DNA from: Escherichia phage T2
DNA: 64,000 nt
Strand: one strand, 5' to 3'
Sequence record: NC_054931.1
The number at the start of each line of letters is the position of its first letter. The first letter of the stretch is position 1. A program made the position numbers and the translations under genes. The notes below the pieces were generated by a model. It did not search any database, was not told the DNA's origin, and saw only the letters and a program-made list of their open reading frames with translations. Below are positions 2,759 through 22,316 of this stretch, one piece after another.

Positions 2759-4042
2759 ATGGCTAAAATCAACGAACTTCTGCGCGAATCAACCACAACG
2801 AATAGCAACTCAATCGGTCGCCCAAATCTCGTTGCTTTGACTCGCGCTACCACTAAATTAATATATTCTGACATTGTAGCAACGCAAAGAACTAATCAAC
2901 CTGTTGCTGCTTTTTATGGTATCAAATACCTTAACCCAGACAACGAATTTACATTTAAAACTGGTGCTACTTATGCTGGCGAAGCTGGATATGTAGACCG
3001 AGAACAAATCACAGAATTAACAGAAGAGTCTAAATTAACTCTCAATAAAGGCGATTTATTCAAATATAATAATATCGTTTATAAAGTATTAGAAGATACA
3101 CCATTTGCTGATATTGAAGAAAGCGACTTAGAGCTGGCTCTTCAGATTGCAATTGTTCTTTTAAAGGTTCGTCTATTTTCTGACGCAGCGTCAACAAGCA
3201 AATTTGAAAGCTCTGATAGTGAAATTGCGGATGCTAGATTCCAGATTAATAAATGGCAAACCGCGGTTAAATCTCGTAAACTTAAAACTGGCATCACAGT
3301 TGAATTAGCGCAAGATTTAGAAGCAAATGGATTCGATGCTCCTAATTTCTTGGAAGATTTGCTTGCAACTGAAATGGCAGATGAAATCAATAAAGATATT
3401 CTGCAATCTTTGATTACAGTGTCAAAACGCTATAAAGTTACAGGAATTACTGATAGTGGATTCATCGATTTGAGTTATGCGTCTGCACCTGAAGCTGGTC
3501 GTTCATTATACCGAATGGTATGTGAAATTGTTTCGCATATCCAAAAAGAATCAACTTATACAGCAACGTTCTGTGTTGCTTCTGCTCGTGCCGCTGCGAT
3601 TCTTGCTGCATCAGGTTGGTTAAAACATAAACCAGAAGATGACAAATATCTTTCACAAAATGCCTACGGGTTATTAGCTAATGGTTTACCGCTTTATTGC
3701 GATACTAACAGCCCATTAGATTATGTAATCGTTGGTGTAGTAGAAAATATCGGTGAAAAAGAAATTGTTGGATCAATTTTCTATGCTCCGTATACAGAAG
3801 GTCTCGACTTAGATGACCCTGAACATGTAGGCGCATTTAAAGTTGTTGTTGATCCAGAAAGCTTACAACCGTCTATCAGTTTATTAGTTAGATATGCTTT
3901 ATCAGCAAATCCTTATACCGTAGCAAAAGATGAAAAAGAAGCAAGAGTAATTGATGGTGGAGACATGGATAAAATGGCGGGTCGTTCAGATTTGTCTGTT
4001 TTATTAGGTGTTAAATTACCAAAAATTATTATTGATGAATAA
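2759..4042 (+). CDS. 24: capsid vertex protein gp24
   Basis: 427-aa gp23 paralog immediately downstream of 23; length matches T4 gp24. Confidence 0.93.
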   Translation: MAKINELLRESTTTNSNSIGRPNLVALTRATTKLIYSDIVATQRTNQPVAAFYGIKYLNPDNEFTFKTGATYAGEAGYVDREQITELTEESKLTLNKGDLFKYNNIVYKVLEDTPFADIEESDLELALQIAIVLLKVRLFSDAASTSKFESSDSEIADARFQINKWQTAVKSRKLKTGITVELAQDLEANGFDAPNFLEDLLATEMADEINKDILQSLITVSKRYKVTGITDSGFIDLSYASAPEAGRSLYRMVCEIVSHIQKESTYTATFCVASARAAAILAASGWLKHKPEDDKYLSQNAYGLLANGLPLYCDTNSPLDYVIVGVVENIGEKEIVGSIFYAPYTEGLDLDDPEHVGAFKVVVDPESLQPSISLLVRYALSANPYTVAKDEKEARVIDGGDMDKMAGRSDLSVLLGVKLPKIIIDE

Positions 4043-4048
4043 AACAAA

Positions 4049-4073
4049 GGGACCGAAAGGTCCCTTTTTATTT
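4049..4073. terminator. bidirectional intrinsic terminator between gene 24 and rnlB
   Basis: GGGACC-GAAA-GGTCCC hairpin with T tract on + strand and A tract upstream; lies between convergent genes. Confidence 0.65.
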
Positions 4074-5072
4074 AGCTCACCAACTCAATCCAAGCTGGAC
4101 GAAGTACATCTTACCATTTTAACTAATTCCTTTTTAATCAAAGAAGGATTATCTGCTTGAGTTAGAGTAATACCTTCACGAGAAGTTTCTTCCAAAATAT
4201 CTTGAACAGTTAGCCCCATCACCTTTCCAAAATCCTTTGGACCAATTTCGCCAATTTTAGAAATAACGTTATTTACACGGTTCAGTGTAACGTAACAAGC
4301 TAAAATTCCCACCAATTTGTTATCAGCTTCTGATAGTTCAACTTTAGCTTTAATAGGCTTATCAGACTTTTTCTTTTCACTAAATTTGGAATTCTTGCAT
4401 TTAATTGCTACACGATTTCCATTATGAAGCCAAGAAGGATAACAAGGTTTCAATACATATCCTTCAGCAGTAAATACTTCGCCTTTTGCTTCGGCATTCC
4501 AAACGCATTTATTTGCATCAACTAATCCAGCATGGTCTACTGTAAAATTATAATCTTGGACGACAGAATCTAAATCATTTGGCAATTTAATAAGCTCTTC
4601 AAATTTACCGCGACCTAAAAGTGGAGCAATTTTAAATTTAAATGTATTACAGAATGATTCCATCATATAATCATCAACATAAGTCACATCACCACTTTCT
4701 GTAGTGACAATAATGTCAAATACATAAAAATCTTTATCGCCATAATCAACATTCTTCTGAATGCCAGGTCCAGCGAATTCGCCAAAGACTTGATAAGATA
4801 CAACCGCTGAGGTTTCCATAATATCTTGTACTGCTTTAATGGAATCAGCGTAATTCTTTAGAATAATTTCATACCCAAAGAAATCTTCAGCAGGAAGAAT
4901 CGGTCCAGTACGTTTAGCACAAGTTACTTTATCACGCTCAATAATCAATGAGAAATTTGTGCCGTGAATCTTTTCACGAGCTACCCATTCGCCGCCAGTC
5001 AATCCCAAGCTGTAAAGTTTTTCAATAAATTTAGAGTTGTAATGATTTTCAAGACTGCTACTTTTTAAACAT
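4072..5072 (-). pseudogene. rnlB: RNA ligase 2 (Rnl2) gene disrupted by two 2-bp deletions
   Basis: ATG at 5072 gives MFKK then TAG; the body (KIHGTNF ligase motif) is in a second frame from 5008; the C-terminus switches to a third frame encoding [12 protein letters not shown] with stop at 4072-4074. Confidence 0.75.
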
Positions 5073-5081
5073 AATTAATCC

Positions 5082-5357
5082 TCAAAATGTAATTTCTAAC
5101 CAATCACCATCACGCTGATCACTATTGACTTTAAAATTAAATCCTTCTTTTCTCAGCCAATCACCAATTTCTTCAGTAATCAATTTATCGCGAGCAGTAT
5201 AATAACTAAAATATGTTTTACCTTGTTCAGCTGCTTTATTAGCAAGTTCCGAAAAATCTTTAATAAAACACTCTAGCTTAAACTGTTTACTTTTTAATGC
5301 TTTTTCGCGTAATTGATTAGCAAAAGATTCATTTTCATAAAGTTCATACTGTTCCAT
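5082..5357 (-). CDS. hypothetical protein (24.2-like position)
   Basis: 91-aa ORF, synteny between rnlB and hoc. Confidence 0.55.
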   Translation of the reverse strand: MEQYELYENESFANQLREKALKSKQFKLECFIKDFSELANKAAEQGKTYFSYYTARDKLITEEIGDWLRKEGFNFKVNSDQRDGDWLEITF

Positions 5358-5559
5358 TTTTCACCTTTTTATTGATATGTCTTTTTCTATAGACAACTTT
5401 TTCTCGAGTTTCAAATTTATTCTTAGCAGTCATAGCTCGAGCCCATAATACAGCCACTTCTTTTGCATGTAAGTTTAATTCACGAGCAATTTCAATGAAT
5501 GACTTTCCAGACTCATGAAGAGTAAACACCACAACCTCAGTTCTCATATTCAATCTCAT
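5344..5559 (-). CDS. hypothetical protein (24.3-like position)
   Basis: 71-aa ORF overlapping the downstream gene by 14 nt. Confidence 0.55.
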   Translation of the reverse strand: MRLNMRTEVVVFTLHESGKSFIEIARELNLHAKEVAVLWARAMTAKNKFETREKVVYRKRHINKKVKNGTV

Positions 5560-5628
5560 GTTATCGAGTTGGTGCCATTATATACATCATTTTCTGATTG
5601 TGTTTTGTGTGCTTTCAAAATGAAGAAA

Positions 5629-5642
5629 GGGGCCGAAGCCCC
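5629..5642 (-). terminator. stem-loop/terminator downstream of hoc
   Basis: GGGGC-CGAA-GCCCC hairpin followed on the - strand by a T-rich tract. Confidence 0.5.
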
Positions 5643-5648
5643 TTATGA

Positions 5649-6765
5649 TTATGGATAGGTATAGATGATACCAGTTTCTAAAGCAGTTTTATGAATGATG
5701 TATCCATTACGCGATTCTTGGACATCAACTTCTGGATAGTCTTTCATCATCTTCTGAAGAGTGTAACGATGCAGGTAGTATTTACTCTGGATCTTCAGTT
5801 TTCCAATCTTTACCTTCTTCAGTCATTTTTTGGATTTCATCCATAACCCACCAACCGCACCAGATGTAAGCTGAAGTACGATGTGGAAGAGGATGAACAT
5901 AAGGTAATTCACCTTCTGGTTCTGGAGCAACTTTATCAGTTACCTGAACTTGACCTGTTGTTTTAACTGTTTTGCTATCATAATCAGTAGCAGTAACGAC
6001 GGCAGTCACTTCAATAGTTTGACTTCCAACAGATGAAGTATCAACGGTATATACATTAGTTGACCCTTCTACAGGAGAAGAATCTTTCTTCCATGAATAA
6101 GTAATTTGCGCTTCTTCTGGAGCATCAGTAACATTAGCAGTAAATGTAGCCGAAGCATCTTGTTGAACGTTAATAGAAGGAGGAGTCAATGTAACCTGTG
6201 GATTCATTGTCTTCTTATTAACCGTTAATGACACTTCATTAGAAGTAACGCTTAGTGCATCATAATCTGTCGCGGTTACTTGAGCTACACACTTGATTTT
6301 TTAACTCCACTTGTAGTTGGAGTATAGCTAAATGTAGAGTTAGTTTCTCCACCAACTTGTGAATCATCTACATACCACTGATACGTAGCAGATGCTCCAT
6401 CAGGTTGAGAAGCTAAGGCAGCAGTAAATTGAACTGGGGTTCCGATTACTCCAGCGTCAGGGCTATTAGGAGTTACAGCTAAGGTGGTCGTTTGTGTCTT
6501 ATTTTGAACTGTGATAGTTGTAGTAGCTTCTGCTGTTTCAGCTTCAGCTTCTGGAATTGTATTTGTTGCAACTACTTTAATAGTCTTTTGACCGGCAGGT
6601 ATAACTAAAAGTTGCTTCAGCTCCATCTTGTGGAACATTATCTACGCTCCAAGCATAGGTAATAGTTCCACCTTCAGTTTGACCACTGGGTGCAGCAGTA
6701 AACTGCTTGGTTTCATCAATAACCCCTGTCGGTGTTTTAGGAGTTATATCAACTGTAAAAGTCAT
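5649..6765 (-). pseudogene. hoc: hoc (outer capsid decoration protein) disrupted by three frameshifts
   Basis: N-terminus MTFTVDITPKTPTGVIDETKQF matches T4 Hoc; coding continues in three different frames with breaks near 6600, 6295 (A-run) and 5786; C-terminal ...GIIYTYP read in the third frame to stop 5649-5651. Confidence 0.75.
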
Positions 6766-7505: not shown

Positions 7506-9017
7506 ATGACTGACATTAAAGTACATTTTTATGATTTTAGTCACGTGAGAATTGATTGTGAAGAAAGTACATTTCATGAACTCCGTGATTTCTTTAGCTT
7601 TGAAGCTGATGGGTATCGTTTTAATCCGAAATACAAATATGGCCACTGGGATGGACGAATCCGTCTTTTAGATTATAATCGTCTTCTTCCATTCGGCTTA
7701 GTCGGGCAAATTAAAAAGTTCTGTGATAATTTTGGCTATAAAGCCTGGATTGACCCACAAATTAACGAAAAAGAAGAATTATCAAGAAAAGATTTTGATG
7801 AATGGCTTTCTAAATTAGAAATCTATTCAGGAAATAAAAGAATCGAACCACACTGGTATCAAAAAGATGCAGTGTTCGAAGGATTAGTTAATCGTCGTAG
7901 AATTCTTAATCTTCCAACATCTGCAGGTAAATCTTTAATTCAAGCTTTGCTTGCGCGATATTATTTGGAAAATTATGAAGGTAAAATTCTTATCATTGTT
8001 CCAACAACTGCTTTAACAACTCAGATGGCTGATGACTTTGTTGACTATCGTTTATTCAGTCATGCAATGATAAAGAAAATTGGTGGCGGAGCATCAAAAG
8101 ATGATAAATATAAAAATGATGCACCAGTCGTTGTTGGTACATGGCAAACTGTAGTTAAACAACCGAAAGAATGGTTCTCACAGTTTGGAATGATGATGAA
8201 TGATGAATGCCATCTTGCTACAGGAAAAAGTATTTCATCTATCATATCAGGTTTAAATAACTGCATGTTCAAATTCGGTTTGTCTGGTTCATTACGTGAT
8301 GGCAAAGCTAATATCATGCAGTATGTTGGAATGTTTGGTGAAATATTTAAGCCAGTAACGACTTCTAAATTAATGGAAGATGGACAAGTAACTGAGCTAA
8401 AAATTAATAGTATTTTTCTTCGCTATCCAGATGAGTTCACTACTAAATTAAAGGGAAAAACTTACCAAGAAGAAATAAAAATTATTACTGGGCTCAGTAA
8501 AAGAAATAAATGGATCGCTAAATTAGCTATTAAGCTTGCGCAAAAAGATGAAAACGCTTTTGTCATGTTTAAACATGTATCGCATGGTAAAGCTATTTTC
8601 GATTTAATTAAAAATGAATACGATAAAGTTTATTACGTATCAGGGGAAGTTGATACCGAAACCCGCAATATAATGAAAACCTTAGCTGAAAATGGTAAAG
8701 GAATAATTATAGTAGCTAGTTATGGTGTATTTTCTACTGGTATTTCAGTTAAAAATCTGCATCACGTTGTTTTAGCGCACGGTGTTAAATCAAAAATCAT
8801 TGTATTACAAACAATCGGTCGTGTATTACGTAAGCATGGTTCTAAGACAATAGCAACCGTCTGGGACCTCATAGATGATTGTGGTGTTAAGCCAAAATCT
8901 GCTAATACGAAAAAGAAATATGTTCATTTGAACTATCTTTTAAAACACGGCATTGATCGTATTCAGCGCTACGCAGATGAAAAATTTAATTACGTAATGA
9001 AAACAGTTAATTTATAA
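7506..9017 (+). CDS. uvsW: UvsW recombination/repair helicase (SF2 ATPase)
   Basis: 503-aa ORF with GKS Walker A and DECH Walker B motifs; recognised as T4 UvsW. Confidence 0.9.
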   Translation: MTDIKVHFYDFSHVRIDCEESTFHELRDFFSFEADGYRFNPKYKYGHWDGRIRLLDYNRLLPFGLVGQIKKFCDNFGYKAWIDPQINEKEELSRKDFDEWLSKLEIYSGNKRIEPHWYQKDAVFEGLVNRRRILNLPTSAGKSLIQALLARYYLENYEGKILIIVPTTALTTQMADDFVDYRLFSHAMIKKIGGGASKDDKYKNDAPVVVGTWQTVVKQPKEWFSQFGMMMNDECHLATGKSISSIISGLNNCMFKFGLSGSLRDGKANIMQYVGMFGEIFKPVTTSKLMEDGQVTELKINSIFLRYPDEFTTKLKGKTYQEEIKIITGLSKRNKWIAKLAIKLAQKDENAFVMFKHVSHGKAIFDLIKNEYDKVYYVSGEVDTETRNIMKTLAENGKGIIIVASYGVFSTGISVKNLHHVVLAHGVKSKIIVLQTIGRVLRKHGSKTIATVWDLIDDCGVKPKSANTKKKYVHLNYLLKHGIDRIQRYADEKFNYVMKTVNL

Positions 9018-17541: not shown

Positions 17542-17545
17542 CAAT

Positions 17546-17575
17546 GGGGACCTTTCGGTCCCCATATTTTTATTT
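17546..17575. terminator. bidirectional terminator between gene 54 and alt.-3
   Basis: GGGGACC-TTTC-GGTCCCC hairpin followed by ATATTTTTATTT. Confidence 0.65.
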
Positions 17576-17860
17576 ACGGAATGAAATGAAAGCAGAAACT
17601 GAAGCAACTAAACTGTCTTCAATATAAACTTCAATTTTTACCGGAGCTTCTGACTCAAATTTACCTGTTACTACACCCTGGAAAATGCTTTCAGTCTGTT
17701 CTGGCTTTGAAAAATTTTCAGAAGGAAAAATTCCGAACTTTTTATCTGTTCCAAAAATTTTAATAAATTCATCGTAAACCGCTTCGTTAAAAGCATTATC
17801 AGCAGGAATAACGCCTTCAACTACAAGTTCTTGACCTAAAAAGCGCAAAGAAGATTTCAT
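17570..17860 (-). CDS. hypothetical protein (alt.-3 position)
   Basis: 96-aa ORF downstream of the alt paralogs. Confidence 0.6.
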   Translation of the reverse strand: MKSSLRFLGQELVVEGVIPADNAFNEAVYDEFIKIFGTDKKFGIFPSENFSKPEQTESIFQGVVTGKFESEAPVKIEVYIEDSLVASVSAFISFRK

Positions 17861-17891: not shown

Positions 17892-17921
17892 ATTATAACA
17901 CAACATAAGGAACTTGTAAAC
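17892..17921 (-). promoter_or_regulatory. T4-type early promoter (GTTTAC, 18-nt spacer, TATAAT) upstream of alt.-3
   Basis: On - strand GTTTACAAGTTCCTTATGTTGTGTTATAAT; near-identical block upstream of alc. Confidence 0.55.
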
Positions 17922-19978
17922 TACATTTTGAACTTTTTAGACATTCCGTTGATGTTAACCAAAGAAGCTAATATTTGAGAAACTTCGTTTTCCTCTTCTT
18001 TTGATTCTTCTACAAGGAATTGATTAAATCCAGCCATTGGACGAACTTCACCAGTTTCCATTAAATGGTCTCCATCATATACTGATTCTTCTAATTGTTC
18101 AGAAGGAGGAACGATTGTACCTTCGATTAGATACTTGTTATAAGCAGTTTCTTTCATAAAGTACGTACTTACTTTATTAATCTTCAGTAAAATTCCACGC
18201 GGTAGAATAACTTCAGCTTCTGATGGAAATCCTGATAAATGACCTGGAACGATAACTTTGATTCGCTCAGCTCCTTTAATTACCATACCCACGCTAGTTT
18301 CAGCATCTTCATTAGCATATGTAGAATGACTACCCATATGCATCAAATCTTCTGCATCAACGGAACCTTCTCCTTCTCCAGAAAATACTGCACCGGAATC
18401 ATCTAGAGCCATATAGTTTTTACCATGCTCGCCAAAGATATTTGGTTTAAGTGATGTCGATACGAAGTTCTTGAAATAGAACATTTTGTTTTCAATGTTG
18501 TGACGCAAAGTTTTAAAGGTAACTTCTTGTCCGCGATAAAGCGTAGTTCCTGGAGGAAGAACTGAACCTTTAGCGAATGCAGAATCCAACGTCTCGATGT
18601 GCTTAATAGCACGTTCCATATATTCTTCACGGGTAGAATCTGGTTTACCCAAAAGGAACGAGTTCATTTCAACATATGAATCTGCACAATAATCTTCAAT
18701 TACATCAGACTCAGCCTGAGTCAGTCCTTTTGGAGTTACTTCAGTGCTTGCATATTCATATGCCTGGGCAGCAGATTCATTAATCAATTTATAAATGCCA
18801 TTCATGACAAATTGAATAATAACTGTCTTTTCATCTGGCGTAGCTTTAGAACCTTTAACCAAATCATTGATAATTTTCTTAATAACATCAAAGCTATTAG
18901 AAATATTAATATCAGCAAGATCACTTAAAATTTTATCAGTTTTATAATCAAAGAATTCTTTATTCTTTAAATATTCTTGAGAACCTTGATATGTTATATC
19001 GCTCTGTAACTTGATAGATGGATCACGTAAACGTGCATGGGCTAATGCAATATGATTTCGGAAGTTTTCTAGTTCATAATCGCTAGATTTAAAACGAGAA
19101 GCACTTCTCATACCACCGATAGCTCCTTTGCTGAAGTTTGAACCAATCTGAATAACGCCAGAGTTCATTGGTCCTTCTGCTTTATATACCGGAACTTTAG
19201 ATTCAAACTCTTGATATTTCTTGGCAGCGAAGCTATCACCCTGAAGTGAAGCATCGACAGTAGAATATTGAGCTTGTGCTGCTAATCGACGACTAATTTT
19301 AGTTTTCTGAATAACCGCTTGGTCAGTACGTTTATCATTTTCTAAAGCAATAGAAGCAGCAACAGCGACAGCTTTAGGAACAGCATCACCTGTTTTAACA
19401 TCTACATAAACATCACCGACCTTCGATTCAACTTTTGCGAATAACTCAGTTGAAATAGGAGGTACACCTGGAATGTCTTCTAAATTGGCATTTTTACGGT
19501 AAACCATAATATATGCATACTTTTTATCATAGTCCCAGATTTCCTTTAAAAGAACATATCGACCTGCTCCTTTAGTACGTACTAAACGGTCAGCAATAAC
19601 TTGCATTTGACGAGCTGCGCCATTTGTTTTACTTTTTAGTACGCGGAATAAGCATGCGTCGATTTTATACTGTTTCATTGTTTGAAGAGCAGTATCAAAA
19701 ACAGCATTAATGACGCCAATTGGATTTCCACCCAAGTTTCTAAGCTTAACCAGCGATAATTTCTCGTTGACACCTATCATTACGATATGCATCATTTTAT
19801 CGCCTGGCTTAACGTTTTTATTTGTATCACCACCAGAGGTGTATGTACAAAATCTAAATCCAGGAAGCACGCTTTCTTCGCCGGCTTGAATAGCAAAAAT
19901 TTGTGGTATTTTATGCTTAGGATTTAAGTTAACAACCGGCGCCGAAGCGCCGTCAAATAATTCTGTAATAAGTTCCAT
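17921..19978 (-). CDS. Alt-family ADP-ribosyltransferase paralog (full length)
   Basis: 685-aa ORF; N-terminal MELITELFD shared with alt; C-terminal R (LYRGQ), STS (FVSTSL) and ExE (SEAEVILPRG) ART motifs. Confidence 0.8.
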   Translation of the reverse strand: MELITELFDGASAPVVNLNPKHKIPQIFAIQAGEESVLPGFRFCTYTSGGDTNKNVKPGDKMMHIVMIGVNEKLSLVKLRNLGGNPIGVINAVFDTALQTMKQYKIDACLFRVLKSKTNGAARQMQVIADRLVRTKGAGRYVLLKEIWDYDKKYAYIMVYRKNANLEDIPGVPPISTELFAKVESKVGDVYVDVKTGDAVPKAVAVAASIALENDKRTDQAVIQKTKISRRLAAQAQYSTVDASLQGDSFAAKKYQEFESKVPVYKAEGPMNSGVIQIGSNFSKGAIGGMRSASRFKSSDYELENFRNHIALAHARLRDPSIKLQSDITYQGSQEYLKNKEFFDYKTDKILSDLADINISNSFDVIKKIINDLVKGSKATPDEKTVIIQFVMNGIYKLINESAAQAYEYASTEVTPKGLTQAESDVIEDYCADSYVEMNSFLLGKPDSTREEYMERAIKHIETLDSAFAKGSVLPPGTTLYRGQEVTFKTLRHNIENKMFYFKNFVSTSLKPNIFGEHGKNYMALDDSGAVFSGEGEGSVDAEDLMHMGSHSTYANEDAETSVGMVIKGAERIKVIVPGHLSGFPSEAEVILPRGILLKINKVSTYFMKETAYNKYLIEGTIVPPSEQLEESVYDGDHLMETGEVRPMAGFNQFLVEESKEEENEVSQILASLVNINGMSKKFKM

Positions 19979-19981
19979 GAT

Positions 19982-22078
19982 TTATCCTTGAACGAACTTG
20001 TAAGGCATGTTTGTAATATCTATGCAAGACGCAATAATTCCGAGAGATGATTCTACTTTCTGTTTAACATTTGATGAAACAAATGATGCAAAGTCAACTC
20101 TGTCTTCTATTTCAATATCACCTGTCATTGCAACTACTTCGCCGGTTTCCATTAAACGGTCTCCGTCATAGATTACCGATTCGGTGAGTTCTTCTGTGGT
20201 CATAACTTCAGCTTGAATGAGTTTTGTATTATTAGACGTGGTTCCGTCATTATTAGAAGCATCAGTTATTTTATTAACTTTGACCATCAATCCGCGCGGT
20301 AGAATAACTTCAGCTTCTGTTGCTATTCCGAGACTTCCTGGATATACAACATTAACTTTATGAGCTCCATCAATTGCCCATCCTATTTGAACTTTAACGT
20401 ATTCAGGATTTTCTTTATACGCTCTTATTTCGTTTGGATTAATAGTTATTCCTTCTTCATTTTTATCAACTGTTAATTCATTGCGAGCTTCTGGTTCTAA
20501 AAGACCAATACCAGCATGTGTAATTCCAAAACGTCCAAAAATGATAGGAGTTAAAGAAGTAGATACAAAATTTCTGAAATAGAACACTTTATTTTTAACT
20601 AGCGCTTCGTATATAGGAGCAGTCATACTTTGAGCACGATAAACTGTAATGCCTTCCGGTATGCGGTCACCATTTTCAAAAGCTGAATCTAAATTATTTA
20701 TAGCAGATTCAATTTCTTTTTCACTCATTACATCATATCGTTCTGGATTGTAACGACCTAAAAGAAGATTATTAATGTCTGTATATCCTGAACCACAATA
20801 CTCTCTAATACCGCGCTTTTGTGATGGTGTATATTTAGAACCATCACAAGCAATAGTAATATCAATCATTGGACCAGCACCAATTCCAGAAAAACTATAA
20901 ATCATTCGTTTGAGGAATTTAGTTTTTGCTGCATTCCAGGCATTTTTAGTTATTTCTCCCCAGACTTCATCTGGCTGCCCTTTACGAGTTTTATTATGTT
21001 TATCAAGCCAATTATCTTTATATTCTTCAAAGAATTGATTGACAGCTGCCGCGTATTTCTCTAAACATTTTATTGAAGTAGTTGGTTCATTTTTAATCGC
21101 GTTAAAAATTACATCTTTAATTTTTTCAGAAACTTCATCAACCTCACTTTTTGAAAAGAATTTATAGTCATAGTGAAGTTCATTCGCAGTTCCTTCGGCA
21201 ATAATTTTTGCTGCCTTTGTTTTAGAAGCTAATGAATTAATTCCAATTTTCATTTCTTCTGCTTCGGGAATTAAAGGAGCGGTAGCAGGCTTATTGAAAT
21301 TAGCTGCGGTAGATTCATACTTCTGGAATAATTCACTTTCAAATCTAGAAGATTCCAATGATTGACTTTGCGCAATTGCTCTACGGGAAATTTTAACTTT
21401 AACGATTACAGCTTGGTCAGTACGTTTATCATTTTCTTGTGCAATAGATGCTGCAATTGCCTCGTTTTTAGTTACTTGAGCTCCAGTATCTTTATTGATA
21501 TAAACATCACCGACCTTCGATTCAACTTTAGTAAAGAGCTCGGTACTAATTTCCGGAACTCCTGGAATGTCTTCTAGTGATACATTTTTGCGATGTATAA
21601 GAATATATGCATACTTTTTATCATAATCCCAGAGTTCCTTAAGAAGGACGTATCTGCCACCTGAACGACTACGGATAAGTCTATCAGCAATAACTTGAAT
21701 TTGTCGAGCTTGACCAGCAGTTTTAGACTTAAGAATACGAAGCATACAAGCATCAATTTTATACTGACGCATTGTTTGCATTGCAACAGTAAAAACTGAA
21801 TTGATATAATTAATTGGGCTTGGACCAAGACCTTTTAATTTAGCAATTGAACCTTTAGCAGTTAATGTAAAAGGAACAATATGCATCATTTTATCGCCCA
21901 TTTTTAAATCGCGATTAGTATCACCTCCAGATGTATAGGTACATAAACGAAAGCCTGGTTGTTCAATTGCATCATCAACATGAACTGAAAAAATTTGTGG
22001 TATTTTCTTCTTTGGATTTAAGTTTGTAATCGGAAGAGTAGTATCTTCGTCAAATAATTCTGTAATGAGTTCCATCAT
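19982..22078 (-). CDS. alt: Alt ADP-ribosyltransferase (internal head protein)
   Basis: 698-aa ORF (MMELITELFD..., second Met may be the start); VYRAQ, FVSTSL and ATEAEVILPRG ART motifs; adjacent to gene 30 as in T4. Confidence 0.85.
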   Translation of the reverse strand: MMELITELFDEDTTLPITNLNPKKKIPQIFSVHVDDAIEQPGFRLCTYTSGGDTNRDLKMGDKMMHIVPFTLTAKGSIAKLKGLGPSPINYINSVFTVAMQTMRQYKIDACMLRILKSKTAGQARQIQVIADRLIRSRSGGRYVLLKELWDYDKKYAYILIHRKNVSLEDIPGVPEISTELFTKVESKVGDVYINKDTGAQVTKNEAIAASIAQENDKRTDQAVIVKVKISRRAIAQSQSLESSRFESELFQKYESTAANFNKPATAPLIPEAEEMKIGINSLASKTKAAKIIAEGTANELHYDYKFFSKSEVDEVSEKIKDVIFNAIKNEPTTSIKCLEKYAAAVNQFFEEYKDNWLDKHNKTRKGQPDEVWGEITKNAWNAAKTKFLKRMIYSFSGIGAGPMIDITIACDGSKYTPSQKRGIREYCGSGYTDINNLLLGRYNPERYDVMSEKEIESAINNLDSAFENGDRIPEGITVYRAQSMTAPIYEALVKNKVFYFRNFVSTSLTPIIFGRFGITHAGIGLLEPEARNELTVDKNEEGITINPNEIRAYKENPEYVKVQIGWAIDGAHKVNVVYPGSLGIATEAEVILPRGLMVKVNKITDASNNDGTTSNNTKLIQAEVMTTEELTESVIYDGDRLMETGEVVAMTGDIEIEDRVDFASFVSSNVKQKVESSLGIIASCIDITNMPYKFVQG

Positions 22079-22098
22079 ATCCTCTCTAGTGTTTATTC

Positions 22099-22106
22099 TA
22101 TTTATA
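22099..22106 (-). promoter_or_regulatory. late promoter TATAAATA upstream of alt
   Basis: TATAAATA on - strand 21 nt upstream of the alt ATG. Confidence 0.45.
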
Positions 22107-22111
22107 AAATT

Positions 22112-22129
22112 AAAGGCCCGAAGGCCTTT
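22112..22129 (-). terminator. stem-loop AAAGGCC-CGAA-GGCCTTT downstream of alt.1
   Basis: 7-bp GC-rich stem with tetraloop, T-rich on - strand. Confidence 0.45.
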
Positions 22130-22316
22130 AATAATCTATAGGTAAGAGAGTACGATATATTTCAAACTTTGGACCTTTTTCATAAGCATCAAAAGTTTCT
22201 GTGAATTTATTATAAGCATATGCATCTATAAATTCAATCATGATTTGTGATACAGAAGTAGAAACATCTCCACCTTCTTTTTGAGCTACAACAATTGTTT
22301 CTAAGTAAGCTTTCAT
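22128..22316 (-). CDS. hypothetical protein (alt.1 position)
   Basis: 62-aa ORF between gene 30 and alt. Confidence 0.55.
   Translation of the reverse strand: MKAYLETIVVAQKEGGDVSTSVSQIMIEFIDAYAYNKFTETFDAYEKGPKFEIYRTLLPIDY

Follow-up and report, generated by a model that had tools for sequence, protein, structure and literature searches.

A tandem pair of alt-family genes in Escherichia phage T2 predicted to encode two ADP-ribosyltransferases with a shared delivery domain

Does a T-even phage inject one ADP-ribosyltransferase (ART) of the Alt family into its host or two, and if two, what does the second one add? The question is raised by a stretch of 64,000 nucleotides (nt) of Escherichia phage T2 (NC_054931.1; hereafter the window, to which all positions refer unless stated), in which two long open reading frames (ORFs) follow each other on the minus strand. 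According to the ORF listing, the upstream gene, alt (slot 1), occupies 19982..22078 and encodes 698 amino acids from its first ATG or 697 from its second (translation starting MMELITELFDED), and the downstream gene, alt2 (slot 2), occupies 17921..19978 and encodes 685 amino acids (starting MELITELFDGAS). We consider it likely that the locus is an alt-alt2 late operon for two arginine-specific mono-ADP-ribosyltransferases of the R-S-E (C3/VIP2/Vis-like) clade built on one delivery scaffold. Phage T4, the reference for injected ADP-ribosyltransferases, is the minority case, having lost the second predicted enzyme, whose gene is present in about four of every five close relatives.

A preliminary description of this locus had proposed two full-length tandem Alt paralogs, each with a complete R / STS / ExE catalytic triad, and both points are confirmed. 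The two ORFs are intact, their products are 41% identical (BLASTP, E = 2e-161), and the motifs were found as quoted. Alt contains Y480-R481-A-Q, S506-T-S508 and E588-A-E590, with the catalytic codons on the minus strand at 20636-20638 (R481), 20555-20563 (S506-T-S508) and 20309-20317 (E588-A-E590). Alt2 contains Y481-R482-G-Q, S507-T-S509 and E587-A-E589, with codons on the same strand at 18533-18535 (R482), 18452-18460 (S507-T-S509) and 18212-18220 (E587-A-E589). The catalytic glutamate is missing from neither paralog, and the order Arg, Ser-Thr-Ser, Glu-x-Glu is canonical in both; an ART fold, as expected of R-S-E clade mono-ADP-ribosyltransferases, was recognized as well. In a family alignment of 22 sequences (42-95% identity), residues R482, S507, S509, E587 and E589 of Alt2 are invariant. 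The domain PF03496 (ADPrib_exo_Tox) was matched at 71.4 bits by Alt2 (8.4e-20) and at 129.1 bits by Alt (1.7e-37), both above the curated cut-off of 23.4 bits. Also, phrog_802 matches the proteins over their full length (Alt2 residues 1-685 at 7e-255, Alt residues 1-697 at 1.5e-272), and the N-terminal domain PF26846 (Tevenvirinae_ADPRT) has a precomputed match on close homologs. No NCBIfam model matches either protein.

The E-x-E motif is a mark of arginine-specific ARTs and Q-x-E of asparagine-specific ones. By analogy, the ExE of Alt and Alt2 predicts arginine as the acceptor residue for both, a likeness to Vis, C3bot, iota Ia, CdtA and VIP2, the C3-like and binary-toxin mono-ARTs of the R-S-E type. 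It is bacterial systems that secrete or translocate these toxins, whereas the Alt family is delivered from the phage head, and the Alt family differs further by an additional phage-specific N-domain of ~235 residues (PF26846) and by termini that are removed by a protease. An AlphaFold model of Alt2 begins with an alpha/beta N-domain (residues ~12-215), which a linker modeled at low confidence (224-239) connects to a helical region (250-470). The ART core (479-622) comes next and is rich in beta structure; residues 629-647 are disordered, and a short C-terminal tail completes the protein.

Which of the two genes corresponds to the well-known alt of T4? Several phage T2 genomes match the 4.9-kb region at 100% identity, and RB32, RB33, T6 and many further phages match it at 97-98%. 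Several T2 records name both ORFs 'Alt-like RNA polymerase ADP-ribosyltransferase', and the upstream ORF equals a 'T2 alt' entry deposited in the 1990s (X69893). In T4, the transcription order is 30 (ligase), alt.1, alt, alt.-1, alt.-2 and alt.-3, with gene 54 convergent; in T2, the locus likewise lies between ligase/alt.1 and alt.-3/gene 54, and the same order was found in 10 other phages. T4 Alt (NP_049811) has the same slot, late promoter motif, ATGATG start, R-S-E triad and pair of gp21 cleavage motifs as the T2 slot-1 protein. The two are 72% identical overall and 97-100% identical over residues 1-238 and ~627-697, but differ in the core (419-626), where identity in 30-residue windows is 37-83%; T4 Alt and Alt2 share 41% identity overall. 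Regarding the small T4 genes, alt.-1 aligns to residues 1-54 of Alt2 and alt.-2 to residues 62-117, and their PHROG families match Alt2 (2e-40 and 1e-37) better than Alt (1e-21 and 2e-19). The comparative alignment with T4 alt, alt.-1 and alt.-2 that the preliminary description had called for thereby identifies the upstream 698-residue ORF as the ortholog of T4 Alt and the downstream 685-codon gene as the source of alt.-1 and alt.-2.

At the annotation level, the pair is already known. The BASEL records bas36_0031, bas44_0032 and bas45_0031 label the downstream gene 'ADP-ribosyltransferase Alt2', the fFiEco06 record notes the similarity of its alt2 product to T4 Alt.-1 and Alt.-2, and Nolan 2006 (PMC1524935) had listed, for T4-like phages, alt.-1/alt.-2 as well as duplications of alt at full length. 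The BASEL Alt2, the RB32 'alt.-2' and the RefSeq Alt-like entries are the same gene as the T2 one (685 amino acids, 97-99% identity, same position).

The layout of the locus fits late co-expression of alt2 with alt. The start of alt is ATGATG in T2 (22073-22078, minus strand) as in T4 (8501-8506 of the T4 locus); the annotated start varies among records, giving 698 or 697 amino acids, and T4 uses the second ATG. A Shine-Dalgarno sequence, GAGAGG (22081..22086, minus strand), stands 2 nt from the first ATG (22078) and 5 nt from the second (22075). Because this spacing and the T4 precedent favor the second ATG, the alt product is probably the 697-residue protein beginning MELITELFD. The shared MELITELFD start that had been reported for the two proteins therefore holds for Alt2 and for Alt read from its second ATG, but not for the 698-residue form, which carries an extra methionine.

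Twenty nucleotides before the first ATG of alt, the T4-type late promoter motif TATAAATA occurs as an exact match (22099..22106, minus strand), a call made on the motif from the established T4 late consensus; its position is kept in T4 and six other phages. Just upstream of it, a GC-rich hairpin followed by a T-run (AAAGGCC-TTCG-GGCCTTT; 22112..22129, minus strand) was read by eye. It is identical in T4, and a terminator is annotated there in KAW1E185, although a simple consensus terminator scan did not report it. This terminator-like element probably ends the ligase/alt.1 transcript shortly before alt. Downstream, the TAA stop of alt (19982-19984) is separated by 3 nt from the ATG of alt2 (19976-19978), a junction identical in six other phages, and the Shine-Dalgarno sequence of alt2, AAGGA (19985..19989, minus strand), lies within the final codons of alt; such an arrangement suggests translational coupling of alt2 to alt. 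No promoter motif was found between the genes when the junction was examined. Another copy of TATAAATA at 20695-20702 (minus strand), ~720 nt upstream of alt2, was considered as an internal late promoter and rejected, because it is kept only in T2-type alt, and T4-type alleles accompanied by alt2 lack it; a chance match within coding sequence is the probable explanation. We infer that alt and alt2 share one late promoter and are co-expressed late.

Delivery is the next step. T4 Alt is a head-internal protein that enters the host together with the DNA, each head containing about 40 copies (PMC9026906), and mass spectrometry has located its cleavage by gp21 at ITE-6 and LTE-619, which removes 6 N-terminal and 63 C-terminal residues (PMC5694885). 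Both sites have counterparts in the two T2 proteins. The N-terminus M(M)ELITE|L is kept in Alt and Alt2 (ITE at residues 5-7 and 4-6, respectively), and the C-terminal site reads L-T-E|S in Alt (LTE, 631-633) and L-E-E|S in Alt2 (LEE, 629-631), in each case immediately before a conserved (V/I)YDGDxLMETGE. The P1 glutamates of Alt2 (E6, E631) are invariant across the family alignment, and the disordered stretch of the Alt2 model (629-647) coincides with the C-terminal cleavage motif. The cleavage motifs, the presumed common late promoter and the apparent coupling of the genes fit late co-expression and co-packaging, and on these sequence features the packaging and injection of Alt2 together with Alt are a well-supported prediction. 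The T4 internal proteins IPI-III offer a parallel: they are processed by gp21, injected with the DNA, and combine a conserved delivery module with a fast-evolving exchangeable payload. Their targeting sequence is a propeptide of 10-20 residues, whereas in the Alt family a whole domain and both termini would be concerned, the targeting role being deduced. A conserved delivery module joined to an exchangeable payload is also a likeness to polymorphic-toxin modularity.

It is unlikely, though worth some weight, that Alt2 is an active ART which is not packaged and which acts late inside the producing cell, its substrates being, for instance, host or phage proteins at the assembly stage. The T4 enzymes ModA and ModB do work intracellularly (PMC3014915), the head takes only about 40 copies of Alt, so that binding sites may be limiting (PMC9026906), and virion data for Alt2 were not found in the literature. 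Against this, Alt2 retains the ITE propeptide of 6 residues, an N-domain of ~235 residues homogenized with that of Alt (see below) and the C-terminal L-x-E/S followed by YDGDxLMETGE; a protein kept out of the prohead would have no obvious reason to preserve both cleavage motifs or to evolve in concert with Alt.

If Alt2 is a working effector, why does T4 lack it? According to the preliminary description, T4 annotates the second copy as the split fragments alt.-1 and alt.-2 and the gene seen here is intact. The fragments are indeed there and the T2 gene is intact; the idea of a full-length copy split in two is ruled out by a frameshift and a 1,699-bp deletion. T4 and T2 DNA match at 95% over a stretch that begins at the end of alt and takes in the first ~350 nt of alt2 (the region of T4 alt.-1 and alt.-2, NP_049810 and NP_049809), and the match resumes with the last 20 nt of alt2 and runs on from there. 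In the 5' part of alt2, a single A has been lost from an A-run, and the resulting frameshift ends alt.-1, while alt.-2 restarts at an internal ATG. The 1,699 bp were deleted between 9-bp direct repeats, CTAAAAAGT, of which one copy is left at the T4 junction; in T2, the repeats stand at 19631-19639 and 17932-17940 and flank the segment that is absent from T4 (17941..19630, minus strand). T4 retains only the first ~117 codons of alt2. T4 alt.-1/alt.-2, which a GenBank note already traces to an ancient duplication of the beginning of alt, are therefore a decayed 5' stub of alt2, a pseudogene remnant of a gene that is intact in T2.

The comparison with T4 had also implied that an intact pair is unusual, and this is contradicted by the distribution of the gene. 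The 1,690-bp segment missing from T4 was found in 400 phage records at 94-100% identity (coverage of 80% or more), and the T4-type junction is contiguous in 91, so that about 400 records have the pair intact and about 91 show the T4-type deletion. Full-length alt2 is thus present in about 80% of sequenced T4/T2-group phages. With tblastn, Alt2 retrieved 401 records at at least 80% identity, nearly all of them at least 95%, and nothing between 60 and 80%; it is essentially one allele. The alt slot is dimorphic, with about 315 records at least 90% identical to T2 Alt and 211 at 60-80%. The gene alt2 stands beside T2-type alt in WL-3, Sfk20, A2 and PaulHMueller, and beside T4-type alt in AR1 and fFiEco06.

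In six other phages, alt2 is an intact ORF of 685 codons, and compared with T2 its ratio of nonsynonymous to synonymous substitution rates (dN/dS) is 0.031-0.060 at a synonymous divergence (dS) of 0.16-0.26. These values show strong purifying selection, as for a gene that is functional and not decaying. A catalytically dead or redundant copy, retained in a structural or core role or merely still awaiting decay, would be in line with the loss of the gene in T4 and about 90 other genomes and with the frequent frameshifts of alt-family genes in other genera. It is nevertheless rather improbable given the low dN/dS at this divergence, the invariance of all the catalytic residues, the intact ORF in ~400 records and the retention of slot-2 orthologs in Dhakavirus and Moonvirus; redundancy in particular agrees poorly with an ART core that is only 34% identical to that of Alt.

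How old, then, is the pair? Between Alt and Alt2, amino acid identity is 50-80% over residues 1-240, drops to 12-26% over ~240-450, and for the ART core and tail lies mostly at 35-46%, with one loop down to 5%; the genes are 56% identical at the nucleotide level overall and 68% in the N-domain. Tandem pairs also exist in other genera, namely in JS10 (Dhakavirus; 694 and 707 amino acids), SW69-9 (Biquartavirus; 639 and 642 amino acids) and CF1 (Moonvirus), whose second copy carries a frameshift, and ECD7 has a full copy and a C-terminal fragment of 274 amino acids. The ART core of T2 Alt is 94% identical to that of JS10 slot 1, 67% to that of T4 Alt and 34% to that of T2 Alt2, and for the core of T2 Alt2 the values are 57% with JS10 slot 2 and 48% with CF1 slot 2. 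The N-domain behaves differently: T2 Alt shares 99% identity there with T4 Alt, 69% with T2 Alt2 and 46% with JS10 slot 1, and the JS10 copies fall together as a pair. The ART cores thus group by slot and the N-domains by genome, which indicates an old duplication with slot-specific orthologs in other genera, mobile catalytic cassettes, and an N-domain homogenized between the copies within each genome (concerted evolution). A recent tandem duplication in T2, with the identical stretches as leftovers, is hardly credible and was rejected: the genes are adjacent, in the same orientation, begin with the same peptide and have exact runs of 18-30 nt in common, yet nucleotide identity is low, the ART cores cluster by slot across genera and not by genome, the same pair is found in ~400 genomes, and gene conversion accounts better for the runs, which go beyond amino acid conservation.

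T2 Alt itself is a mosaic of three parts. Residues 1-238 and ~627-697 are T4-like (97-100% at the amino acid and 95-100% at the nucleotide level), and the ART core (419-626) resembles JS10 slot-1 Alt (87-100% and 80-94%, respectively). Such a mosaic suggests that phage genera have exchanged the catalytic cassette, and as the core is JS10-like and not T4-like, T2 and T4 have different alleles of the slot-1 cassette.

The identical stretches of DNA deserve attention in this context. Long near-identical runs between the genes had been noticed in the preliminary description, and they are real. The quoted 25-mer, CTTGGTCAGTACGTTTATCATTTTC, occurs exactly twice on the plus strand, at 19318..19342 in alt2, inside a 27-nt run coding for ENDKRTDQA, and at 21412..21436 in alt (earlier given as about 19313 and 21411). 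Exact runs in register between alt and alt2 reach 18-30 nt. The N-domain contains 4 runs of at least 20 nt, a count reached in 0 of 2000 codon-column shuffles; when the pattern of amino acid identity was held fixed, the observed count was reached in 16 of 5000 shuffles with a minimum run length of 20 nt and in 1 of 5000 with a minimum of 24 nt. Since the runs exceed what amino acid conservation would produce, we prefer patchy gene conversion, which they fit. Another identical run, of 25 nt, codes for (S/T)EAEVILPR in the ExE region (minus strand; 18198..18222 in alt2, 20295-20319 in alt).

These patches coincide with the crossover sites of single-gene chimeras. In the complete genome of KAW1E185 (MK373781, 3004-5061 of its locus), a single gene replaces the pair; it corresponds to Alt up to ExE and to Alt2 afterwards, and the switch lies inside the 25-nt EAEVILPR run. 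Two metagenomic contigs, L009 (4001-6055) and L010 (4001-6061), each have a single gene with an Alt N-terminus and the rest from Alt2, the switches occurring at a 30-nt and a 27-nt run; in L010, the crossover is just after the 27-nt run that holds CTTGGTCAGTACGTTTATCATTTTC.

Elsewhere in Straboviridae, alt-family genes are often frameshifted or truncated, as in CF1 (3501-5623), Melville (3492-5599) and ECD7 (5541-6365). According to the Melville record, its frameshift was verified by Sanger resequencing, and BFVD contains 'split' Alt proteins of Acinetobacter phages. The alt locus turns over quickly.

Taken together, the course of events that we propose is the following. Alt and Alt2 would be synthesized late in infection, trimmed by gp21 after ITE (6 residues) and after L-x-E (the last 54-65 residues), retained in the head, and carried into the next host with the DNA. 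In the cell, both would use NAD+ to ADP-ribosylate host proteins on arginine. Alt would modify the RNA polymerase alpha subunit and other proteins, and the targets of Alt2 may include host defense proteins. Within a genome, the N-terminal packaging domain would be kept uniform, while old catalytic cassettes would be swapped between genera, and the identical patches would serve as crossover sites that occasionally collapse the pair to one chimera.

The two enzymes most likely act on different sets of host proteins, as their ART cores are 34% identical, their middle regions (12-20% identity) are essentially unrelated, and the loop that precedes ExE in Alt2 differs from that of Alt. T4 Alt modifies Arg265 of RNA polymerase alpha and many other host proteins (PMC3014915). 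According to a 2025 preprint (10.1101/2025.11.20.689424), the defense system Mokosh type I is countered by T4 Alt, whose place cannot be taken by the Bas37 Alt, indicating that specificity differs even between alleles of one slot. We tentatively suggest, while giving it less than even chances, that Alt2 is a second injected effector with targets of its own, possibly a defense protein; that its loss helps to make T4 differ in defense sensitivity from T2- and T6-like phages; and that the locus works as a two-slot effector-cassette system, with a genome-specific packaging domain kept uniform by conversion, ART cassettes swapped between genera and occasional collapse by crossover.

Several points weigh against the proposed course of events. 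About 18% of the relatives, T4 among them, thrive although they lack alt2, and T4 can dispense with alt as well, so that any role of Alt2 must be conditional. A literature search for Alt2 found no functional study, biochemistry or virion proteomics. The L/I-x-E cleavage motif is short and T4 Alt has further copies that are not cleaved, which makes its conservation only suggestive of processing. The AlphaFold model of Alt2 was built from the shallow 22-sequence alignment and reaches a predicted local distance difference test (pLDDT) score of 74.9, and the trees behind the grouping by slot and by genome are neighbor-joining trees without support values. Assemblers use k-mers of a length comparable to the shared runs at the breakpoints of L009 and L010, and because of this match in length these two chimeras may be assembly artefacts.

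Alt2 and the exchangeable cassettes are reasonable candidates for determinants of host range or anti-defense, because the preprint reports an effect against Mokosh type I for T4 Alt and none for the other allele. The anti-defense role reported for Alt gives the function of Alt2 a new relevance, the existence of the gene pair being already established. This also concerns phage therapy, as many therapeutic T4-like phages have both alt and alt2.

The pair is bordered on both sides by small genes. Directly after the alt2 stop begins a strong early-type sigma-70 promoter, GTTTACA-17 nt-TATAAT (17892..17920, minus strand; 11/12 matches, with a TG extension), which serves a 96-residue ORF (17570..17860, minus strand) equivalent to T4 alt.-3 (DUF5498). 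This neighbor lies outside the ART pair; T4 alt.-3 mutants with a C-terminal extension escape the CmdTAC defense (PMC11618068). A bidirectional terminator hairpin (17544..17565) separates alt.-3 from the convergent gene 54. On the other side, the 62-residue ORF equivalent to T4 alt.1 (22128..22316, minus strand) matches PF24647 'Phage blade protein' (7.5e-29) and stops at the hairpin in front of the late promoter motif of alt.

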